A program made the translations under genes and the position numbers. From an uncultured Oscillospiraceae bacterium (GTDB lineage Bacteria; Bacillota; Clostridia; Oscillospirales; Oscillospiraceae), in the NCBI GenBank assembly GCA_944385535.1, contig CALWXR010000004.1, positions 1,140 to 65,139 on the forward strand: DNA of 64,000 bases, given 5' to 3'. Below are positions 25,267-49,469 of the stretch, piece by piece; positions within the stretch are counted from its first letter, which is position 1, and every line of letters starts with the position of its first letter. Under the pieces are notes generated by a model that made no database searches, was not told the origin of the DNA, and worked only from the letters and a program-made list of their open reading frames with translations.

Positions 25267-26358
25267 ATGGATTTATATGAAAAGCTGCTGGAGGTTTCCA
25301 GACTTTTTCGGATCGAATATGATTATTTAGGCTACGAAACCATTCAGATGGGCAACGTAAACCGTACCTATAAAGTGAACTTCATGCTGCCGGAGGGGAA
25401 ACCCAAGTCTTTCCTGGTGCAGAATGTGAATACCTACGCCTTCCGCAACCCGGTAGGTCTGATGGAAAACATTGACAAGGTCACCGAGCACATCCGCCGG
25501 AAGAAGCCGGGACAGACCGCGCTGCATTTTCACCATACCGCCGACCGAAAGACGTATGTGATCGACGGGGAGAATTTCTGGCGGATGACCAATTACGTGC
25601 CTTCCGTTACCTACAATGTGGTGAAGGATCTGGACATTGTCCGCAACGCGGGCATGGCCTTCGGTGAATTCCAGACGGAGCTGATGGACTTTGATATCCA
25701 TGAGCTCATTGAGACCATCCCCGGCTTCCACAACACCCGCAAGCGGTATGAAAGCTTGGGGGAGGCCATCCGGCTGGATCCGGTGGGCCGGGTGGCTCAG
25801 GTGGGGCCGGAGATCCGGTGGCTGATGGAGGTTCAGGATCTGGCCTGTAAGCTGACGGATTTGCAGATGGCCGGGGAGCTTCCCCTGCGGGTAACCCACA
25901 ACGATACCAAGATCAACAATGTGCTTTTCGACCCTCAGACCAATCAGGGCATGGTGGTCATTGACTTGGATACGGTCATGCCCGGCCTCATGGGCCACGA
26001 TTTTGGCGACGCCATCCGCTTCGCAGGCAACTTTGTGGAAGAGGACTGCCCGGATTATGAAAAAGCCGGCGTGGATCTGGAGGTGTTCCGGGCCTTTGCC
26101 CAGGGCTTCCTGTCCCAAACCGCGCAGTCCATGACCCGGAAGGAACTGGATACCCTCTCCCTAAGCTGCTTCGCTCTGACCGCGGAGCTCTGCGTCCGAT
26201 TCCTGGACGACTATATTCGGGGGGATAAGTACTTTAAGATCAATTCTCCCGACCACAACCTGGTGCGTACCCGCTGCCAGATCGCCCTGGCAAAGGATAT
26301 GCTGGAGAAGATGGCGCGGATGGAGCAAATCGTCCGGGAATGCGCCGCTCAGCTATGA
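25267..26358 (+). CDS. APH-fold phosphotransferase, N-acetylhexosamine 1-kinase-like
   Basis: GNVNRTY, RVTHNDTKINNVLFD (HxDxxxxN), VIDLDTVMPG, DFGDAIR. Confidence 0.8.
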   Translation: MDLYEKLLEVSRLFRIEYDYLGYETIQMGNVNRTYKVNFMLPEGKPKSFLVQNVNTYAFRNPVGLMENIDKVTEHIRRKKPGQTALHFHHTADRKTYVIDGENFWRMTNYVPSVTYNVVKDLDIVRNAGMAFGEFQTELMDFDIHELIETIPGFHNTRKRYESLGEAIRLDPVGRVAQVGPEIRWLMEVQDLACKLTDLQMAGELPLRVTHNDTKINNVLFDPQTNQGMVVIDLDTVMPGLMGHDFGDAIRFAGNFVEEDCPDYEKAGVDLEVFRAFAQGFLSQTAQSMTRKELDTLSLSCFALTAELCVRFLDDYIRGDKYFKINSPDHNLVRTRCQIALAKDMLEKMARMEQIVRECAAQL

Positions 26359-26359
26359 C

Positions 26360-26403
26360 AAAATTCAACACGGCGAGGCAACGCTGCCTCGCCGTGATTT
26401 TAT
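26360..26403. terminator. Bidirectional terminator between convergent genes
   Basis: CACGGCGAGGCA-acgc-TGCCTCGCCGTG flanked by AAAAT and ATTTT. Confidence 0.8.
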
Positions 26404-27212
26404 ATCAGCCGCTTTCCCTGCTTGCGGAACTGCTTCGCCTGTTCCACTGTAGGCCAGGTGAAGTAGCGGCCCTTTTCCGTTTCGTTTTTCCGGGGGCTCA
26501 AAGTGCCGTCGGTCACTTGCCGGATGGCTTCCACCATGGCTTCGCCGCCGGCCTGCTTTGTTTTCTTCATCAGCTGGAACATGGTCTTGCAGTCGGAGAT
26601 ATCCACGGCCTTTTGCACACAGATGTCTCCGTCGTCAATGGCCTTGCTCATGTAATGCACCGTGGCGCCGCCTAAGCTTTCGTCGTTATACAGATACCAG
26701 AAGGAGGGCAGGCACCCCCGGTAGTCCGGAAGGAGCGCGCCGTGCACGTTGAGAATGCCGTGCTTGGGAATGCTCAGAAGCTCCTGCTTGATTACCTGGG
26801 GAGCGGAGAAGGAGACGATCAGATCCGGGGCAAGGGCGCGTACATGCTCTATGTAGGTATCGCCGTTTACATTGGGAACCACCCGGAAGTCGCAGCCGAT
26901 CTTCTTGGCGGCGGACTGAATGGAGCAGGTACCGCCGGACAGTCGCAGACCGGACAGATTGTCCAGGACGTTCTGAAGCTTCCTGGCGAAGGAGACCAGA
27001 CCCATCTTGCCGCACTGGAACAGGCCGAACCAGCGGAGCATATCCGACAGCTTATTGTCCAGGGAATGCTTGGAGCGGTTGTCCACCACTTCCACCACAT
27101 TGCACACTTGGGAGACTTTCAGAATATTCGCGGGGATAAAGAAGGCGTCCCGCTGGGTGATGACGATCACATTCAGCTTCTTCGCTTCCTTAACAGAGTT
27201 ATCAGCAGCCAT
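26400..27212 (-). CDS. Formyltransferase (Fmt/GART fold), probable sugar N-formyltransferase
   Basis: ILNVHGALLPDYRG and ATVHYMSKAIDDGDI catalytic motifs. Short, lacking the usual Fmt C-terminal domain. RBS AAAGGAG before ATG 27212. Confidence 0.85.
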   Translation of the reverse strand: MAADNSVKEAKKLNVIVITQRDAFFIPANILKVSQVCNVVEVVDNRSKHSLDNKLSDMLRWFGLFQCGKMGLVSFARKLQNVLDNLSGLRLSGGTCSIQSAAKKIGCDFRVVPNVNGDTYIEHVRALAPDLIVSFSAPQVIKQELLSIPKHGILNVHGALLPDYRGCLPSFWYLYNDESLGGATVHYMSKAIDDGDICVQKAVDISDCKTMFQLMKKTKQAGGEAMVEAIRQVTDGTLSPRKNETEKGRYFTWPTVEQAKQFRKQGKRLI

Positions 27213-27225
27213 GGGCAATTCTCCT

Positions 27226-27891
27226 TTACAGCCCGGCGGCGCCGGTGCGGCTTGCGTATTCCAAAAGCCGGGCGTAGATTTTTTTAGGTTCTTTCCCGAA
27301 AAGACGGGAGAGGATGCACACCACCGTCCACCAGATCATACGAAGATCCACACTGGGACTGATGTGGGATACATACCACAGATCCAGATCCAGCCGTGTG
27401 GGCAGCACATTTTCTTCATAAGCCTGCTCATCGGTAACGGTATCGCCGTAGATATAGTCATACAGGGCAGATGGGCCGGACAAGCCGGGGGTCACACTGG
27501 AAACCTTGGCGTATTTCCCGGCACGGACGATGGCGGTTTGATCCACGCTGGCGGGCCGGGGGCCGATGATGGACATATCCCCCACCAGACAGTTTATAAG
27601 CTGGGGCAGCTCGTCAATTTTGGTATCCCGGATGAACTGGCCAAAGGGAAAGATCCGGTGCTCGTCTCCCCGGAATACAGACTCATTGGCCTTACCCTGA
27701 CGCATGGAGCGGAACTTGAACATACGAAAGGTTTTGTCATCCTTTCCTACCCGGTTCGCCATGTAGAATACCGGGCCGGGATCGGACAGCTGAATCCCCA
27801 CAATGGCGACGAGCCAAAGGGGGGAGGTGATCACGATGCCGAGAAAAGACGCCGCGATGCAGAAGGCACGTTTCACAAGAGGATAAATCAT
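27226..27891 (-). CDS. Small phosphoglycosyl transferase (Bac_transf, PglC/CapM-like initiating transferase)
   Basis: KRAFCI...GPVFY...RVGK...FKFRSM...IRDTKIDELPQLINCLVGDMSIIGPRP...PGLSG...LDLWY. RBS GGAG before ATG 27891. Confidence 0.9.
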   Translation of the reverse strand: MIYPLVKRAFCIAASFLGIVITSPLWLVAIVGIQLSDPGPVFYMANRVGKDDKTFRMFKFRSMRQGKANESVFRGDEHRIFPFGQFIRDTKIDELPQLINCLVGDMSIIGPRPASVDQTAIVRAGKYAKVSSVTPGLSGPSALYDYIYGDTVTDEQAYEENVLPTRLDLDLWYVSHISPSVDLRMIWWTVVCILSRLFGKEPKKIYARLLEYASRTGAAGL

Positions 27892-28571
27892 AAGATAACT
27901 CTCCTGAAAGCGCATTCGAAGGCCTCGGCATAGCAGCAGCCGGATTGGGCGCCCCGGTAGGCGGCCAGTCCGGTGATGGCTTCGGCGCTTCTGGGATGGG
28001 GATAGGGCCGCATAACTCCCCGATACATGGACAGGGCTTCCACTTTCATGTCCACAGCCTCCTTGCCGGTCTCCACAAAGACATTGGGCATAAAGCGGTT
28101 CATGGCGGTGTTGACAGACCATTCCGTAGAGGACAGAACCTCCATATACCAAAGCTCGCCGATGGGCCTGACGTCCGTCCTGCGCTGGAACAGCCGGATG
28201 GCCGCCTGACAGGCCAGGGAGGTGTGCATATGATCGTTATTGGTGTCGGAAGGATGGTGGGTGATGACAATATCCGGCTGGGCCTGAAGAATTGCTTTTT
28301 CAATAAACTGCACCAGATGCAGATGGGAAACGTTGTTTAATTCAATATTTGGGAATGCGCCCAAAAACTTGCCGTGAATGCCCAGATGCTGGGCGCTGGC
28401 GTCCAGATCCTTTTTCAGGGCCTCATCCTCCGGACGGAAGGCCCGGGCCTTTGCCTCGGCGGACAAAATGCACACGTCTACCTGAGCACCCTGCTGTGCG
28501 TATTTGCGGATGGTTGCCCCCGCCCCCAGAACCTCATCGTCCGGATGGGCCACGACCAGCAGAATATTCAT
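27888..28571 (-). CDS. PIG-L/LmbE family N-acetyl deacetylase
   Basis: VVAHPDDEVLG and THHPSDTNNDH metal motifs. Its stop overlaps the next ATG (ATGA). Confidence 0.9.
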   Translation of the reverse strand: MNILLVVAHPDDEVLGAGATIRKYAQQGAQVDVCILSAEAKARAFRPEDEALKKDLDASAQHLGIHGKFLGAFPNIELNNVSHLHLVQFIEKAILQAQPDIVITHHPSDTNNDHMHTSLACQAAIRLFQRRTDVRPIGELWYMEVLSSTEWSVNTAMNRFMPNVFVETGKEAVDMKVEALSMYRGVMRPYPHPRSAEAITGLAAYRGAQSGCCYAEAFECAFRRVIL

Positions 28572-28654
28572 ATTCCCATCAACTCCCTGTACAGCGTTGG
28601 AGCCGGCCCCTTTCCAGAACTGTGGAGTGGGCATTTCCCCTGTTTTTCCTGACA

Positions 28655-28759: not shown

Positions 28760-28828
28760 GTGACTAAGTATGCGGACAGGAGCGCTTTTTTGACTGCTTC
28801 TGTTACAGTATTTTTAGGACGTGAGCAA

Positions 28829-30715
28829 ATGATGCTATCCCCCAAAAAAAACAAAATAAGTATGAGCGTGGTCTCTAAGGTTGTGGTTATCATGGCGCTG
28901 GATATTCTGGCGACTGTGATCTGCTTCTTTTTAGGCTTGTGGTTTCGCTATGATTTTTCTTTTGCCGCCATCCGGGAGGTACATTTGACAGGCTATCTTT
29001 CTGCCATTGGCCCCTGGTGCGGCATTACCATTGTGGTATTCTGCTGTTTCCGGCTGTACAGTTCCATATGGGCCTTTGTCAGCACCTCTGAGGTGTTTCG
29101 GATTCTGGGCGCCTATGCTGTGCTGGGTGTGATCGGCGTGCTGCTGTTTCACTTTGATGGGCTGGTCATGCCCCGCTCCAGTATGATGGTGGGCTTTGTG
29201 TTCAGCTTCTGCTGCACCGTGGCCATCCGGTTTTCTTACCGGCTGATTCGAACCGCCCAGAGAAAGTTCAGCCATCTGGCCCATGCCAGAGGGGTGAAAA
29301 ATGTTATGCTCATCGGCGCGGGAGACGCCGGACGGGCGCTGGCTTTGGAATTCAACAACAGCGACTACATTCGGGACAACCTGGTATGCGTGATCGACGA
29401 CAATCCGGTGAAGTGGAATAAGCAGCTTTGCGGTGTTCCCATTGTGGGCGGACGGCAGGACATTGCCAAGGCGGTGGAGCAGTATAAGATCAGCAAGATC
29501 ATTTTTGCCATTCCCAGCTGTTCCGCCCAAACTCGGAAGGAGATTCTGGACATCTGCTCCACCACCGGCTGTGAGGTGCAGCTGCTTCCCGGCATCTTCC
29601 AGATGGTCAACGGAGAGGTCAGCGTCAGCAAGCTGCGCAACGTGGATCCCCAGGACCTGCTGGGCCGGGATCCCATTAAGGTGAACTTTGACGAGATCGT
29701 TGGGTATGTTTCCGGCAAGGTGGTGCTGGTCACCGGCGGCGGCGGAAGCATCGGAAGCGAATTGTGCCGCCAGATCGCCAAGGCGCACCCCAAACAGCTG
29801 ATCATTTTTGAGATTTATGAAAACAGCGCCTATGAGATCCAGATGGAGCTCCAGCGTACCCACCCGGAACTGAATCTGAAGGTGCTCATTGGCTCTGTCC
29901 GCAACACCAACCGGGTGAATTACCTGATGGAGACCTACCACCCGGAACTGGTATTCCACGCGGCGGCCCATAAGCATGTGCCTTTGATGGAGGACAGCCC
30001 CAACGAGGCCATCAAAAACAATGTGATCGGCACCTACAAAATGGCGAAAGCCGCCGCCGCCTTTGGGGTGAAGCGGTTTGTGATGATCTCCACCGACAAG
30101 GCGGTGAATCCCACCAACATTATGGGCGCGTCCAAGCGGCTGTGCGAAATGGTGGTGCAGATGATGAACCGGGAGTCGGATACGGAGTTTGTGGCGGTGC
30201 GCTTCGGCAATGTGCTGGGCAGCAACGGCAGCGTGATCCCTCTGTTTAAAAGGCAGATCGAGGCGGGCGGCCCGGTGACCGTGACCCATCCTGACATCAT
30301 TCGTTATTTCATGACCATCCCCGAGGCGGTGAGCCTGGTGCTCCAGGCGGGGTCGTATGCCAAAGGCGGAGAGATCTTCGTGCTGGATATGGGCGAGCCG
30401 GTGAAGATCGATACCATGGCCCGGAATATGATCCGCCTCAGCGGCTACGAGCCGGATGTGGATATCAAGGTGGTCTACACCGGTCTGCGGCCGGGAGAAA
30501 AGCTTTATGAGGAACTGCTGATGAAGGAAGAGGGAATGCAGGAAACTGCCAACCGGATGATCCACATTGGCAAGCCCATTGAAATGGACGACGAGCTGTT
30601 TAAGAAGCAGCTTCAGCGGCTGGATGAAGCCAGCCGGGCGGAGGCCTGCAATATGAAGCAGATTGTGGCGGAGATCGTGCCTACTTACCAATGTCAGGAA
30701 AAGGCTCGGGTATGA
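28829..30715 (+). CDS. capD: Membrane-bound UDP-GlcNAc 4,6-dehydratase (CapD/PglF/WbpM family)
   Basis: N-terminal TM segments, IGAGDAG, TGGGGSIGSELCRQ, HAAAHKHVP, STDKAVNPTNIMGASKR, RFGNVLGSNGSVIP, GLRPGEKL. Start is 28829 or 28862. Confidence 0.93.
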   Translation: MMLSPKKNKISMSVVSKVVVIMALDILATVICFFLGLWFRYDFSFAAIREVHLTGYLSAIGPWCGITIVVFCCFRLYSSIWAFVSTSEVFRILGAYAVLGVIGVLLFHFDGLVMPRSSMMVGFVFSFCCTVAIRFSYRLIRTAQRKFSHLAHARGVKNVMLIGAGDAGRALALEFNNSDYIRDNLVCVIDDNPVKWNKQLCGVPIVGGRQDIAKAVEQYKISKIIFAIPSCSAQTRKEILDICSTTGCEVQLLPGIFQMVNGEVSVSKLRNVDPQDLLGRDPIKVNFDEIVGYVSGKVVLVTGGGGSIGSELCRQIAKAHPKQLIIFEIYENSAYEIQMELQRTHPELNLKVLIGSVRNTNRVNYLMETYHPELVFHAAAHKHVPLMEDSPNEAIKNNVIGTYKMAKAAAAFGVKRFVMISTDKAVNPTNIMGASKRLCEMVVQMMNRESDTEFVAVRFGNVLGSNGSVIPLFKRQIEAGGPVTVTHPDIIRYFMTIPEAVSLVLQAGSYAKGGEIFVLDMGEPVKIDTMARNMIRLSGYEPDVDIKVVYTGLRPGEKLYEELLMKEEGMQETANRMIHIGKPIEMDDELFKKQLQRLDEASRAEACNMKQIVAEIVPTYQCQEKARV

Positions 30716-30750
30716 CGCCGGCTGGAGACGGAAAAGGAAAGGAAAACCAT

Positions 30751-31626
30751 ATGAAGCGGATACTGATTACCGGCGCCAACAGCTATATCGGCCTGTCGGT
30801 GGAAAACTACCTGAAGCAGTGGCCGGATCGGTATCAGGTGGATACCCGGGATATGATCGGCGATGGCTGGAGGACATGCTCGTTCCAAGGGTATGATGCG
30901 ATCCTGCATGTGGCCGGACTGGTTCATCAGCCGAAGAGCAAGGAGGATCCCGGCCAGGCGGAAGTCTATGAGCGGGTCAATACCACTTTGGCGGTGGAGA
31001 CTGCCCAAAAGGCCAAGACCGACGGGGTAAAGCAGTTCCTGTTTATGAGTACCGTGGGAGTTTACGGCTTGGACTCCCCGGTGGGACAGGTGGTGACCAT
31101 TACCAAGGACACCCCCCTGAATCCCAGGGACAACTATGGGATCAGCAAGGCCAAAGCGGAAGCGCTGCTGCAAGATCTGGCGGATGAGACGTTCGAGCTG
31201 GCCATCCTGCGGCCGCCGATGATTTACGGCCCCGGCTGCAAGGGCAATTACGTCACCCTTTCCAAGCTGGCAAGGAAGCTTCCGGTGTTTCCCTGGGTGG
31301 ACAATCAGCGCTCTATGCTGTATATCGATAATTTCTGTGAATTTGTCCGGCTCCTGGTGGATGACCGGGCGGAAGGGATCTTCTGCCCCCAGGACGGGGA
31401 ATATGTAAACACCAGCCAAATGGTGAATCTTATTGCCCATGCCAACGGAAAAAACATTCTGACGGTCAAGGGCTTCGGCTGGGCCTTGAAGCTTCTGGGG
31501 AAATTTACACCCCTGGCTGGCAAGGCCTTCGGGAGTTTGTGCTACGACATGGAGCTGAGCCGGTATTCCCGGGATTACCGGGTCAAGGATCTGACCCAAG
31601 CCGTGATGGAGACGGAGAGCAAGTAA
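30751..31626 (+). CDS. NAD-dependent epimerase/4-reductase (CapN/WbpV-like)
   Basis: ITGANSYIG, YGISK (YxxxK), LRPPMIYGPGCKGN, NQRSMLYIDN. Confidence 0.85.
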   Translation: MKRILITGANSYIGLSVENYLKQWPDRYQVDTRDMIGDGWRTCSFQGYDAILHVAGLVHQPKSKEDPGQAEVYERVNTTLAVETAQKAKTDGVKQFLFMSTVGVYGLDSPVGQVVTITKDTPLNPRDNYGISKAKAEALLQDLADETFELAILRPPMIYGPGCKGNYVTLSKLARKLPVFPWVDNQRSMLYIDNFCEFVRLLVDDRAEGIFCPQDGEYVNTSQMVNLIAHANGKNILTVKGFGWALKLLGKFTPLAGKAFGSLCYDMELSRYSRDYRVKDLTQAVMETESK

Positions 31627-31646: not shown

Positions 31647-32870
31647 TTGAAAAAGAAAAAGGACATCCTGTTTCTGTGCCAGTTTTTTTATCCGGAATAC
31701 ATTTCCTCCGCCCAGCTTCCCTATGATACGGCCCTGGCCCTGACAAAGGCCGGGTTTTCCGTAGGCGCCCTGTGCGGCTATCCCAGGGAATACGCCGAAG
31801 GCGGCCATGTTCCCAAGCGAGAAACGGTCAACGGCATTTCCATCCACCGGCTGAAGTATCTCCAGCTGGATCGAAGGGGATTTTTGGGGCGGCTGGTGAA
31901 TTATTTTTCCTTCACCTTTATGGTGACGCTCCGCCTGAAGGAGATTTCCCAATACAAGGCGGTGGTGGTCTACTCCAACCCGCCCATCCTGCCCTGGATC
32001 GCCTCCTGGGCCAAAGGGCTTTTTGGAACCAAGCTGATTTTTGTGTCCTATGACCTGTATCCCGAGGTGGCCGTGGTAACCAACACTCTCCGACAGGGGA
32101 ATATGATCTGCCGGCTCATGGAGCACATCAACAAAGTGGTATACCGCCGGGCAGATCATGTGGTATCCCTGAGCTCCGAGCAGCGGGAATACATCTTGGG
32201 CCACCGGGACATCCTCCCGGATCGGGTGAGCGTGATCCCCAACTGGTTTGCCGGCCAGGGGCAGGCTCCCTATGACCGGGAACGCAATGAATTCCGGGAT
32301 GTGGTCGGGGACCGGTTTGTGGTTTCCTATTTTGGCAATATGGGGACCCTTCAGGATATGGAAACCATCCTGGAGGCGGTTCGGGAACTAAAAGCGGAAA
32401 AGGATGTGCTTTTCTTCTTTGCCGGTCACGGCAATAAGCAGGAAGCCATAAAGCGGGTTCTGGAAGAAGAAAAGCTGGAAAACGCGGTCATGTATCCCTT
32501 CCTTCACGGCCAGCGGTTCCGGGACGCGCTGGCAGTCAGCGGCTGCGCCCTGGTCTCTTTGGAAAAGGGGATCACGGGACTGTGCGTTCCCAGCAAGACC
32601 TATACCTATATGATGCAGGGACTTCCCCTGCTGGCCGTTATGGATGAAAACGACATTGTGAAAGACGTGGAACAGGGCGCGGGACTTTGGGTAAGAAACG
32701 GAAACGGCAAGGGCTTGGCCCAGGCCGTCCGCACCCTTCGGGACGATCCTGAAAGGCGGGAACAGATGGGAAGCATCTGCCGCCGGATCTATCTGGAAAA
32801 ATATACGACGGAAATCTGTACGAAAAAATATGTGGAGCTGTTTCGGAAATTGCTGCCGGAGCAGGATTAA
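31647..32870 (+). CDS. GT4 glycosyltransferase (WbuB/CapL-like L-FucNAc transferase)
   Basis: LCQFFYPEYISSAQL, YSNPP, YDLYPE, YFGNMG, CVPSKTY. TTG 31647 after AAGGAGG. Confidence 0.85.
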   Translation: MKKKKDILFLCQFFYPEYISSAQLPYDTALALTKAGFSVGALCGYPREYAEGGHVPKRETVNGISIHRLKYLQLDRRGFLGRLVNYFSFTFMVTLRLKEISQYKAVVVYSNPPILPWIASWAKGLFGTKLIFVSYDLYPEVAVVTNTLRQGNMICRLMEHINKVVYRRADHVVSLSSEQREYILGHRDILPDRVSVIPNWFAGQGQAPYDRERNEFRDVVGDRFVVSYFGNMGTLQDMETILEAVRELKAEKDVLFFFAGHGNKQEAIKRVLEEEKLENAVMYPFLHGQRFRDALAVSGCALVSLEKGITGLCVPSKTYTYMMQGLPLLAVMDENDIVKDVEQGAGLWVRNGNGKGLAQAVRTLRDDPERREQMGSICRRIYLEKYTTEICTKKYVELFRKLLPEQD

Positions 32871-32882
32871 GGAGATAAAAAC

Positions 32883-33938
32883 ATGAGTATTTTCACCGAC
32901 AAAACCCTGATGATCACCGGCGGCACCGGTTCTTTCGGCAACGCGGTGCTCAACCGCTTTTTGGAAACGGATATCCGGGAGATCCGGATTTTTTCCCGGG
33001 ATGAAAAGAAGCAGGACGACATGCGTCACGAATTTCAGGCCAAAATGCCCCAGGCGGCCAATAAGATCAAGTTCTTTATCGGCGATGTCCGGGACTTATC
33101 TTCCGTGAAAAACGCCATGCACAATGTGGACTATATTTTCCATGCCGCGGCTCTCAAGCAGGTGCCCTCCTGTGAGTTTTTCCCGTTGGAGGCAGTAAAG
33201 ACAAACGTCATCGGCACGGACAATGTGCTCACCGCCGCCATTGATGCGGGGGTAAAGACGGTGATCTGCCTGTCTACGGACAAGGCCGCCTACCCGGTGA
33301 ACGCCATGGGCACCTCCAAGGCCATGATGGAGAAGGTGATCGTTGCCAAATCCCGCACCGTTTCCCCGGAAAAGACCAAGATCTGCTGCACCCGCTACGG
33401 AAACGTGATGTGCTCCCGGGGAAGCGTCATCCCCTTGTGGATCGATCAGATTAAGGCGGGCAATCCCATCACCATCACCGAGCCCAGTATGACCCGGTTC
33501 ATCATGTCTCTGGAGGAGGCGGTGGATCTGGTGCTCTTTGCCTTTGAAAACGGCGCCAGCGGCGATATTCTGGTTCAAAAGGCCCCTGCCTGCACCATTG
33601 AGACTTTGGCCCAGGCGGTTACCGGACTGTTCAGCCCCAACCATGAGATCAAGGTGATCGGCATCCGCCACGGGGAAAAGATGTATGAAACCCTGCTCAC
33701 CAACGAAGAGTGCGCCAACGCCCTGGATCTGGGCAGCTTCTACCGGGTGCCCTGCGACAAGCGGGATTTGAACTATGACAAGTACTTTAAGGTAGGAGAC
33801 AAGGAGCGCAATGTGCTCACCGAGTTCAACAGCAGCAACACCCAGCTGCTGGACGTGGCCCAGGTGCAGGAAAAGCTGCTGAGCCTTGCCTACATCCGGG
33901 AAGAACTGGAAGCCTGGAACAAGAAAAAAGGAAAATAA
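32883..33938 (+). CDS. fnlA: UDP-GlcNAc 4,6-dehydratase/5-epimerase (FnlA/Cap5E/WbjB)
   Basis: TGGTGSFGNAV, FSRDEKKQDDMR, AALKQVPSCEFFP, RYGNVMCSRGSVIP, EFNSSNT. Confidence 0.92.
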   Translation: MSIFTDKTLMITGGTGSFGNAVLNRFLETDIREIRIFSRDEKKQDDMRHEFQAKMPQAANKIKFFIGDVRDLSSVKNAMHNVDYIFHAAALKQVPSCEFFPLEAVKTNVIGTDNVLTAAIDAGVKTVICLSTDKAAYPVNAMGTSKAMMEKVIVAKSRTVSPEKTKICCTRYGNVMCSRGSVIPLWIDQIKAGNPITITEPSMTRFIMSLEEAVDLVLFAFENGASGDILVQKAPACTIETLAQAVTGLFSPNHEIKVIGIRHGEKMYETLLTNEECANALDLGSFYRVPCDKRDLNYDKYFKVGDKERNVLTEFNSSNTQLLDVAQVQEKLLSLAYIREELEAWNKKKGK

Positions 33939-33948
33939 GGGGCTTGCC

Positions 33949-34662
33949 ATGAATAAAAAAGAGTTGGTGATTCGATACCGGGCGTTGGTACAACTGGCCT
34001 GCCGGGCCTATAATCTGACGAATGTATTCCGAATCAAGGGTAAGGGTCGGAGCAATCAGCTGATTGCTCCCTGCGCCTTGCTGAAAAAATGCCGCATCTG
34101 CTTCGGCGGCAAAAACAACAAGGTGATTGTGGAAGATTTTTCTACTCTGAAGGGCGTGGAAATGTATATCTACGGCGACAACAACACTGTGCATATCGGT
34201 CCCTGGTGTACTCTGCTGAAAACCGAAATCTGCACTGAAAATTCCGCGAATCAAATCAAGATCGGAGAGCATACCAAAATTCTTGGAAAGACCCATCTGG
34301 CTGCCATCGAGGGTACTCAGATCCGTATTGGCAGGGACTGCTTGTTTTCCAGCGATGTGCATATACGGACCGGAGACTCGCACAGCGTTTTGGACATGCA
34401 GGGCCGCCGCATCAACGCTTCCCGGGACATCTCCTTTGGCGATCATGTATGGGTAGGGACCAAGGTCACCTGCCTGAAAGGGGCTGAGGTGCCGGATCAC
34501 TGTATTCTGGGAGCCTGTGCTTTGGTGACGGGAAAGTTTACCCAGCCCAATTGCGTCCTGGCGGGGGTGCCGGCGAAGGTAGTCAAGGAAAATGTGGACT
34601 GGTCCCTGAAGCGAATCGGCCTGGGCCAAACGGCGGCGGATTTTCAGCCCCGATCAGAATAA
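33949..34662 (+). CDS. Hexapeptide-repeat (LbH) acyltransferase, probable O-acetyltransferase
   Basis: IGRDCLFSSDVHIRTGDSH...FGDHVWVG...LKGAEV...VLAGVPAKVVK. Confidence 0.85.
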   Translation: MNKKELVIRYRALVQLACRAYNLTNVFRIKGKGRSNQLIAPCALLKKCRICFGGKNNKVIVEDFSTLKGVEMYIYGDNNTVHIGPWCTLLKTEICTENSANQIKIGEHTKILGKTHLAAIEGTQIRIGRDCLFSSDVHIRTGDSHSVLDMQGRRINASRDISFGDHVWVGTKVTCLKGAEVPDHCILGACALVTGKFTQPNCVLAGVPAKVVKENVDWSLKRIGLGQTAADFQPRSE

Positions 34663-48484: not shown

Positions 48485-48497
48485 GGAGAGAAAAACC

Positions 48498-49469
48498 ATG
48501 AACGGAACACTGATCGTATCCCTGGATTTTGAACTGTTCTGGGGCATGCTGGATTGCTGCGCCTTGGAGGATTACCGGGATCATGTGCTGGGGGGCAGGC
48601 AGGCCATCCCGGAGCTGCTGAAGCTGTTTGAACAATATGGGATCCACGCCACCTGGGCCACGGTGGGCTTTCAGTTCGCGGAAGGCAGCCGGGAGGCGGC
48701 CGCCTATTTCCCGGAAAGCTCCCTGCGGCCAAGCTATGGGGACAAAGCCCTGGATCCCTATGGATGGTTCGAGAAAATCGGCGCCACAGAGGCGGAAGCC
48801 CCATGCTTTTTTGCCCCGGGGCTGATCCGGCAGATCGCCCGGGTTCCCGGTCAGGAGATTGGCAGTCATACCTTCTGCCACTACTACTGCCGGGAGAAGG
48901 GGCAGACCGTAGAACAATTTGCCGCGGATATGGCGGCGGCCAAGAGGATCGCCTCTGACCGGGGGTATGAGCTGACCTCGGTGGTGCTGCCCCGGAATCA
49001 GTGCAAAAAGGAATATACCGGGGTATTGGAGCAGCTGGGCTTTACCGCCTACCGGGATGAGGAAAACGACTGGATCCACAAGCGGATCAAATTCCGCCCG
49101 CTGCTGCGGCTGCTGCGGCTGGCGGATGTATATGTTCCCCTCACCGGCCAGGGGGGCTATATCCCCAAAAAGGAAGGCGGGATCTGGAACCTTACCGGTT
49201 CCCGGATGTATAAGCCGATCTTCCGGCCCCTGGAATTTCTGGAGGGCTGGAAGATACGCCGTATCAAAAAGCAGATGCTCCACGCGGCAAAGGAAGGGCT
49301 GACCTTCCACCTGTGGTGGCATCCCCACAACATCGGCGTGAGAACCCGGGAGCATCTAAAGCAGCTGGAGGATATTTTTTCCTATTATCAGCAGCTTCAG
49401 AAAACCTATGGCATGGAAAGCTTGAATATGAAAGAAGCGGTGGAGAAATACACCCGGACAGGAGCCTGA
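48498..49469 (+). CDS. CE4-like polysaccharide deacetylase
   Basis: SLDFELFWG, HATWATVG, EIGSHTFCH, LPRNQ, FHLWWHPHN. Confidence 0.82.
   Translation: MNGTLIVSLDFELFWGMLDCCALEDYRDHVLGGRQAIPELLKLFEQYGIHATWATVGFQFAEGSREAAAYFPESSLRPSYGDKALDPYGWFEKIGATEAEAPCFFAPGLIRQIARVPGQEIGSHTFCHYYCREKGQTVEQFAADMAAAKRIASDRGYELTSVVLPRNQCKKEYTGVLEQLGFTAYRDEENDWIHKRIKFRPLLRLLRLADVYVPLTGQGGYIPKKEGGIWNLTGSRMYKPIFRPLEFLEGWKIRRIKKQMLHAAKEGLTFHLWWHPHNIGVRTREHLKQLEDIFSYYQQLQKTYGMESLNMKEAVEKYTRTGA

Follow-up and report, generated by a model that had tools for sequence, protein, structure and literature searches.

A candidate N-acyl exchange module of deacetylase, phosphoglycosyl transferase and formyltransferase in a glycan island of an uncultured Oscillospiraceae bacterium

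We analysed a stretch of 64,000 nucleotides from an uncultured Oscillospiraceae bacterium (GCA_944385535.1, contig CALWXR010000004.1; the whole stretch is called the window below), focusing on three adjoining minus-strand genes at 26400-28571. They encode a zinc de-N-acetylase of the PIG-L/LmbE family (PIG-L), a small monotopic phosphoglycosyl transferase (PGT) and a formyltransferase-fold protein, FMT1. We propose, with a probability of about 62%, that this trio is an initiation module through which the first sugar of a Wzx/Wzy-type surface polysaccharide would exchange one N-acyl group for another; from comparisons among loci we infer its substrates, the order of its steps and its formyl product. 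A sequence-only reading of the same DNA had proposed that the amine for formylation derives from a 2-acetamido sugar. The core of that proposal is supported by comparative evidence: the trio is conserved across phyla, CapD-type dehydratase and reductase genes flank it, DegT-type aminotransferases are rare in related loci, other N-acylating partners occur beside the same deacetylase, and a CE4 deacetylase takes the place of PIG-L in one genome. Three further parts, namely a lipid-linked stage, a significant divergent layout and N-acetyl-L-fucosamine (L-FucNAc) as a substrate, are not supported.

The three-gene module and its recurrence

The three genes lie on the minus strand exactly where they had first been placed. 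PIG-L (28571-27888, 227 amino acids; PF02585, E 1e-21) ends in a TGA that overlaps the ATG of the PGT gene as ATGA (27891-27888). The PGT gene (27891-27226, 221 amino acids, PglC/CapM-like; PF02397, E 5e-48) is separated from FMT1 (27212-26400, 270 amino acids; PF00551, E 8e-24) by a 13-nucleotide minus-strand spacer, AGGAGAATTGCCC (27225-27213), which includes an AGGAG ribosome-binding site. For PIG-L, public gene calls put the ATG upstream at 28634, and homologue alignment favours 28571. All the catalytic motifs that had been described as intact are present: AHPDDE and HHPSDTNNDH in PIG-L, IDELPQL in the PGT and LNVHGALLPDYRG...IDDGD in FMT1. None of the three proteins reaches any NCBIfam equivalog cutoff, and they would therefore carry generic names in genome annotation.

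FMT1 scores 84.8 bits against PF00551 (cutoff 26.1), matching profile positions 71-181 only. Its nearest solved sequences are a Met-tRNA formyltransferase (4iqf, E 1.5e-20), the ArnA formyltransferase domain (~1e-17) and then WbkC and other sugar N-formyltransferases; against the characterised sugar N-formyltransferases in the PDB, E values run from 1e-13 to 1e-5. An AlphaFold (AF2) model built from 24 homologues (mean predicted local distance difference test score, pLDDT, 82.8) matched FMT, ArnA and WbkC structures in Foldseek with probability 1.0 and TMq 0.60-0.64 (~0.62) to 4iqf, 1fmt, 2bln and 5vyu. The triad N154, H156 and D192 is invariant in the 24 aligned sequences, and the Asn-His-Asp motifs and an (S/A)LLP-x-x-RG loop are found in all 40 family members. 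FMT1 is without the usual C-terminal domain and carries a specific insertion of ~50 residues (~45-95), modelled as a long helix, in which D56, W60, F61, G62, Q65, C66, M69 and G70 are invariant. A hydrophobic stretch in this insertion, MLRWFGLFQCGKMGLVSF, was examined as a possible membrane anchor; its hydrophobicity is moderate and its hydrophobic moment low.

PIG-L (78.1 bits against PF02585, cutoff 28.2) matches BC1534 (2ixd), TT1542 and MshB in sequence. Across 22 homologues, no variation is seen in residues H9, D11, D12, H105, H106, D113, H114 and H116 or in the AHPDDE and NNDH motifs. Its best NCBIfam scores, 52 bits for BshB1, 38 for BshB2 and 34 for MshB, compare with cutoffs of 182, 195 and 224, and by these scores the window's PIG-L is assigned to a subfamily distinct from all three. 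The PGT scores 163 bits against PF02397; its best solved relative is PglC (8g1n, E 9e-21), and the alignment spans both the TSP re-entrant helix motif and the Asp-Glu dyad of DELPQL.

A search of genomes for the three-gene cassette had been suggested. Scanning species-representative genomes with the FMT1 alignment gave 30 loci with an FMT1 at least 49% identical (L009-L038), whose neighbours were mapped by phmmer, together with two distant formyltransferase relatives (L039, L040). PIG-L and PGT adjoin FMT1 in 29 of these 30 genomes, and because the same trio recurs in this way, its arrangement is judged from synteny to exceed chance. The order PIG-L-PGT-FMT1 is kept in 27 loci and permuted in two Bacteroidaceae genomes. 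The carriers belong to Bacillota, Bacteroidota and Ignavibacteriota (Oscillospiraceae, Ruminococcaceae, other Clostridia, Bacteroides, Fumia xinanensis and an Ignavibacteriaceae metagenome-assembled genome); Fumia xinanensis NSJ-33 (L034) and Bacteroides sp. f07 (L017) are carriers in culture. The exception, Desulfosporosinus lacus (L036:9926-11672), lacks PIG-L and has a CE4 deacetylase (Polysacc_deac_1 with DUF3473) directly after FMT1, so that some deacetylase neighbours FMT1 in all 30.

The trio occurs in three kinds of context. In the first (group A), the order is CapD-PIGL-PGT-FMT1-reductase, often followed by a GT4 glycosyltransferase and an acetyltransferase: CapD lies directly upstream of PIG-L in the sister loci L009, L011, L014 and L037, and the reductase directly downstream of FMT1 in L010, L011, L014 and L037. 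The window holds the inverted form of this arrangement, and the divergent layout to which significance had been attached is thus a local inversion of the commoner order. In the second context (group B), a PglE/EpsN-like DegT gene lies directly upstream, and PIG-L and PGT are far more divergent while FMT1 keeps ~60% identity. In the third (group C), found in rumen Ruminococcaceae, the trio stands alone between MoxR/VWA, LuxS, GntR-type and DUF362 genes; since it can be free-standing between unrelated genes, the three genes are apparently sufficient as a unit. Because the trio is kept together in all three contexts, we take it to be functionally coupled. As to the suggested check on co-occurrence, dehydratase and reductase genes flank the trio in sister loci and an aminotransferase accompanies five FMT1 loci. 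L-FucNAc had been named as one candidate substrate; it is unlikely, because the cassette either stands alone or is accompanied by CapD and the reductase, and not by CapEFG.

More distant relatives show related pairings. On a plasmid of the archaeon Haloarcula halobia (L131:7159-8783), an FMT1-like gene overlaps a CE4 gene, with a GT2 gene adjacent; this set resembles the Arn system, with no aminotransferase in view. On a plasmid of Synechococcus sp. NIES-970 (L130:7306-8687), a short formyltransferase gene overlaps that of an LmbE-like deacetylase, 42% identical to PIG-L, within a pseudaminic-acid-type cluster, which suggests that acetyl is swapped for formyl in nonulosonic acid synthesis as well. 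The plasmid search found no close FMT1 homologue, the best match being 33% identical.

A PIG-L-PGT core with a variable partner

The PIG-L-PGT pair is far commoner than FMT1. A large protein collection holds 431 FMT1 homologues at E<=1e-5 and more than 7900 homologues of the window's PIG-L, many of them 70-77% identical. We assembled a set of 122 related loci, including 80 metagenome loci, in which PGT adjoins PIG-L in 108 (the misses are mainly truncated contigs), CapD is often upstream of the core and an SDR reductase downstream. A DegT gene was found in five of the 122, all of them in the FMT1 context already described.

What varies is the slot beside PIG-L (62-77% identical) and PGT. Besides FMT1, it may hold a second formyltransferase family, FMT2 (PF00551 with PF02911, closest to ArnA; order PIG-L-FMT2-PGT-reductase, which places the reductase downstream of PGT), a WbqC-like protein, long hexapeptide-repeat acyltransferases of ~300 amino acids, or proteins of 379 and 420 amino acids with no Pfam match; some loci have only an SDR and a DUF6016 cupin. 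A further type combines a pyridoxal-phosphate (PLP) enzyme resembling ornithine/diaminopimelate (Orn/DAP) decarboxylases with a PylC-like ATP-grasp ligase (L042-L045, L048, L051, L057, L059, L083, L085, L086, L089 and L100; for example L042:8001-11606); a Tidjanibacter sp. is among the bacteria with such loci. From their gene content, these ATP-grasp loci are predicted to give the primer sugar an N-acyl group that is amino-acyl or derived from an amine.

FMT2 genes are found in 16 loci (L088:7694-8533, L110:777-1631 and 14 others), several of which share the window's downstream genes, namely the same GT4 (~500 bits; L088, L104, L110) followed by CapE, CapF and CapG. In 15 of the 16 members, Gly-Met-His stands in place of the catalytic Asn-x-His, and no such motif could be read in the remaining one; FMT2 may differ in its chemistry or in the donor that it uses.

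Altogether, the pattern of a PIG-L-PGT pair plus a changing slot fits constant deacetylation followed by variable re-acylation, which is its simplest reading. We tentatively go further, at somewhat less than even odds: PIG-L-PGT would be the fixed core of a plug-and-play system for N-acyl diversification at C2 of the reducing-end sugar of surface glycans, with at least seven acyl-installing sets and a PGT matched in each case to the acyl group. Such a system would be widespread among Bacillota and Bacteroidota of the gut and the environment, and the version in the window would make 2-formamido-2,6-dideoxyhexose.

The proposed exchange and its alternatives

The proposed pathway would begin with two plus-strand genes that diverge from the trio. 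A membrane UDP-N-acetylglucosamine (UDP-GlcNAc) 4,6-dehydratase of the CapD/PglF/WbpM type (28790-30715; PF02719, E 5e-124, with CoA_binding_3; start from public gene calls) is the proposed source of UDP-4-keto-6-deoxy-GlcNAc. Together with the adjacent CapN/WbpV/WreQ-like SDR 4-ketoreductase (30712-31626; PF01370, E 1.6e-20), it would convert UDP-GlcNAc to UDP-D-N-acetylquinovosamine (UDP-D-QuiNAc) or UDP-D-FucNAc, the two configurations that we consider for the reductase product. PIG-L, acting as a zinc amidase, is proposed to strip the 2-N-acetyl group from this initiating 2-acetamido sugar, and the freed 2-amine would be formylated by FMT1, a predicted 2-N-formyltransferase that would take its formyl group from N10-formyl-tetrahydrofolate (N10-formyl-THF). 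The small PGT is then proposed to load the modified sugar-1-phosphate (2-formamido-2,6-dideoxyhexose-1-phosphate) onto undecaprenyl phosphate (Und-P). A GT4 glycosyltransferase (31647-32870, plus strand; Pfam GT4 and GT1 domains) probably attaches the second sugar to the modified primer, and the chain would be extended by this GT4 and the L-FucNAc (CapEFG) machinery.

The sequence-only reading had held that no PLP aminotransferase of the DegT/PglE type occurs in the window, and the searches bear this out. When all 64 kb were translated in six frames and searched with three DegT queries (phmmer) and a hidden Markov model made from them, no DegT match appeared at E<=10, and Pfam scans of the genes from 19.8 to 54.5 kb likewise found none.

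Transcription signals and metatranscriptomes also bear on the trio as a unit. FMT1 and a convergent APH-like gene have in common a strong bidirectional intrinsic terminator hairpin (26369-26396; 12 pairs in the stem, 9 of them GC, with a T-rich tail on each strand). The trio had been credited with its own promoter. One sigma-70-like candidate does lie upstream (28683-28655, minus strand; TTGACA-17-TAAGAT with an extended-10 TG, 10 of 12 positions matching), but promoter-like matches in the region number 3 against 1.9 expected and are barely enriched; a separate promoter is thus plausible and weakly supported. Faecal metatranscriptome contigs of at least 95% identity cover FMT1 at 26452-26653, 26682-26832, 26945-27101 and 27044-27224; another (27183-27353) spans the FMT1/PGT junction and a further one (28007-28168) falls in PIG-L. 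These contigs suggest that the trio is expressed and co-transcribed.

Several points weigh against the exchange. To our knowledge, every sugar N-formyltransferase characterised so far uses an amine that an aminotransferase has installed at C3 or C4, and a 2-amine is used by none. A CE4 enzyme beside a formyltransferase is also the ArnD/ArnA pairing, in which the esterase removes formyl. In the five FMT1 loci with a PglE-like DegT right before the trio, a 4-amine would be available, and for the window itself an aminotransferase could lie elsewhere in the genome, of which 64 kb were covered. FMT2 was considered as an independent confirmation of formyl chemistry and downgraded: with Gly in place of the catalytic Asn, it lends formyl transfer weak support. 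Finally, the metatranscriptome contigs are short and shallow and carry no strand information, and DNA carry-over is possible.

Within the exchange, the main question is whether the acyl group is swapped on the UDP-sugar or after transfer to lipid. In the second case, the PGT would transfer a (4-keto-)6-deoxy-GlcNAc-1-phosphate to Und-P, PIG-L would deacetylate the Und-PP-linked sugar at the membrane and FMT1 would formylate the lipid-linked amine. This stage had first been favoured from the middle position of the PGT gene. Gene order does vary, however (PIGL-FMT2-PGT, PGT-PIGL-FMT and FMT-PGT-PIGL also occur), and divergence points the other way. Among 72 loci with full-length PIG-L and PGT, mean identity within a slot type is 58% for PIG-L and 55% for PGT; between slot types it is 59% for PIG-L (55-78% by type pair) and 39% for PGT (32-51% by type pair), the between-type PGT values lying at 32-45% except for FMT1 against the type with SDR and DUF6016 only. 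PIG-L thus behaves in these alignments as if it met one constant substrate, and the PGT appears to change with the acylating enzyme. A swap on the UDP-sugar before the PGT acts is favoured because the PGT, unlike PIG-L, co-varies in a way that fits its reading the new acyl group; a constant N-acetyl substrate for the PGT would instead predict a PGT as conserved as PIG-L.

Other observations fall on both sides. Intermediates of the pseudaminic acid (Pse) pathway are all nucleotide-linked, and the Synechococcus LmbE-formyltransferase pair, in a Pse-like pathway without a lipid step, would be evidence that pairs of this kind are able to act on UDP-sugars. The hydrophobic stretch of the FMT1 insertion could sit at the membrane, but its low hydrophobic moment and the invariant polar residues may point to a binding site instead of an anchor. 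For the lipid stage speak the constant co-location and translational coupling of the PGT; eukaryotic PIG-L, moreover, acts on lipid-linked GlcNAc (GlcNAc-phosphatidylinositol). Completion of a QuiNAc primer at the lipid level, by WreU and then WreQ, is documented and further cases are suspected (PMC11626204), which tells against a swap on the UDP-sugar. So does the nature of the argument from divergence, which rests on sequence co-variation that protein-protein co-adaptation could also produce. Weighing the co-variation and the Synechococcus pair against the WreU/WreQ precedent and co-adaptation, we lean to the UDP-level order, at about 60% to about 40% for the lipid level within the exchange model; taken on its own, the lipid-stage version, which is a share of the exchange reading and overlaps it, is rather unlikely.

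An Arn-like transient formylation is very improbable. Here the amine would come from an unlinked aminotransferase, FMT1 would formylate it, the PGT would transfer the sugar and PIG-L would deformylate it as ArnD does, leaving a free amine in the glycan. The closest relatives of FMT1 in NCBIfam and the PDB do include ArnA-type formyltransferases, the five DegT-PIGL-PGT-FMT1 loci hold the enzyme set of arnB/C/A/D, and CE4 (ArnD-family) genes adjoin FMT1-like genes in Desulfosporosinus and Haloarcula. Nevertheless, DegT is absent from the window and from 117 of the 122 related loci, the trio also stands free, and the same PIG-L (62-78% identity) pairs with ATP-grasp, WbqC-like and hexapeptide enzymes, where a deformylase would have no substrate.

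Least probable, with only a slight chance, is that the genes are linked and do not act in sequence, PIG-L leaving a free 2-amine for charge or linkage and FMT1 formylating another acceptor or transferring no formyl at all: some PIG-L-PGT loci have no recognisable acylating enzyme and only SDR and DUF6016 genes, de-N-acetylated linkage sugars exist, as with PplD in streptococci (PMC8807736), and FMT2 lacks the catalytic Asn, but a deacetylase neighbours FMT1 in every species genome, FMT1 keeps its full catalytic triad and free-standing trios have no other candidate acceptor pathway nearby. PplD was rejected as a PIG-L enzyme; because it belongs to CE4 and is extracellular (PMC8807736), it counts as a functional analogue only. 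The Bacteroides deacetylase BoPDA (PMC11713874) is also a CE4 enzyme and not relevant.

The surrounding island and related systems

The trio lies in a glycan island of ~29 kb (25267-54533) that is placed between rnc (RNase III) and smc, since the remainder of the window consists of housekeeping genes (IleRS, DivIVA, MiaA, MutL, MutS, MiaB, TrkH, DprA, TopA, TrmFO, PlsX, RNase III and SMC); rnc and smc are neighbours in many Firmicutes. Divergently from the trio, the plus strand carries the CapD-type dehydratase, the SDR reductase, the GT4, FnlA/CapE, a WbbJ-like acetyltransferase, CapF and the 2-epimerase CapG, as well as another GT4, a weak candidate for Wzy, LicD, many genes of the GT2 and GT4 families and a Wzx flippase, the run ending at ~54.5 kb. 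The glycosyltransferases of the island number at least 13, beside a single Wzx, the one weak Wzy candidate and LicD, so that more than one repeat unit or one very large unit may be encoded. Sequence of the window is present in chicken and bird gut metagenomes, the same locus occurring in several samples.

Some details of the island vary between strains. The gene for the WbbJ-like hexapeptide O-acetyltransferase (33886-34662), between capE/fnlA and capF, is absent from the otherwise near-identical loci L126-L128 and is thus a strain-variable insertion; capF appears truncated to 163 amino acids in L126. The APH-family kinase-like gene (25267-26358), convergent with FMT1, adjoins the trio in L126-L129. 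With LicD in the same island, its product may be a kinase of the LicA type that serves a phospho-alcohol decoration. The order PIG-L-GT4-ATP-grasp-APH is seen on a plasmid of Priestia megaterium (L132). Within the glycosyltransferase run, a stretch of ~830 nucleotides (48485-49312) contains no open reading frame of coding-like third-position GC content (GC3).

The deacetylate-then-acylate logic has precedents. In mycothiol and bacillithiol synthesis, a PIG-L/LmbE amidase (MshB, BshB) deacetylates a GlcNAc conjugate and MshC or BshC then acylates the freed 2-amine. The trio resembles these pairs in deacetylation by the PIG-L family followed by re-acylation of the 2-amine; they differ in their GlcNAc-inositol and GlcNAc-malate substrates, their cysteine acyl group and the lack of a lipid carrier or polysaccharide, whereas the partners in the trio are a PGT and a formyltransferase. 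In lipid A synthesis (LpxC/LpxD) and in the teicoplanin deacetylase and acyltransferase, a GlcNAc derivative is de-N-acetylated and then N-acylated with a different acyl group; the logic is that of the trio, and enzyme families, acyl donors and pathways differ.

The Arn system (ArnA/ArnC/ArnD) and stand-alone ArnA-like enzymes have in common with the trio a same-fold formyltransferase, a polyprenyl-phosphate sugar transferase and a metal amidase. Arn differs in its ArnB-made C4 amine, transient formyl group, GT2 transferase and CE4 deformylase, while the PIG-L of the trio is common to non-formyl systems and has no aminotransferase; no ArnB aminotransferase, ArnA decarboxylase domain, GT2 ArnC or CE4 ArnD adjoins the trio in the window. 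WlaRD, VioF, WbkC, FdtF, QdtF, WbtJ and PseJ share with FMT1 the PF00551 core, the Asn-His-Asp triad and N10-formyl-THF chemistry, but their substrates are 3- or 4-amino sugars that come from DegT-type enzymes and are linked to dTDP, GDP or UDP; FMT1 is set apart by its ~50-residue insertion, the missing C-terminal domain, its deacetylase partner and the proposed 2-amine acceptor. A close parallel for initiation is given by CapD/CapN/CapM (Staphylococcus aureus CP5/8) and WreV/WreQ/WreU (Rhizobium etli), where the enzymes that start the repeat unit are of the same three kinds as those encoded in the window: a membrane 4,6-dehydratase, an SDR 4-reductase and a small PGT. The L-FucNAc genes (CapEFG/FnlABC) are likewise present in the window. 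Those systems retain the N-acetyl group, and the window adds PIG-L and FMT1.

Novelty, which had been flagged for checking, thus has two sides. The enzyme families and the deacetylate-then-acylate logic are already known; the combination with an initiating PGT, the 2-amine as acceptor of a formyltransferase and the interchangeable slot are new. Full-text searches of open-access literature yielded no description of the cassette or of a 2-N-formyl sugar made by deacetylation, an absence that is not proof, and formyl groups and deacetylases both go unmentioned in a 2024 survey of monotopic PGTs (PMC11626204).

If the proposal is true, FMT1 would represent a new acceptor class for sugar N-formyltransferases, and its product, 2-formamido-2,6-dideoxyhexose, would be a sugar whose biosynthesis has had no description. 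Exchange at C2 would also explain 2-N-acyl variants of QuiN- and FucN-type sugars without an aminotransferase. Annotators could then read a PIG-L gene adjoining a small PGT as the mark of a primer sugar with a modified N-acyl group. The polymerase, the ligase and the next glycosyltransferase all recognise the reducing-end sugar together with its N-acyl group, as do antibodies and the receptor-binding proteins of phages; by replacing acetyl with formyl, or with amino-acyl or other groups, a conserved cassette would offer gut commensals a simple means of varying their surface antigens.

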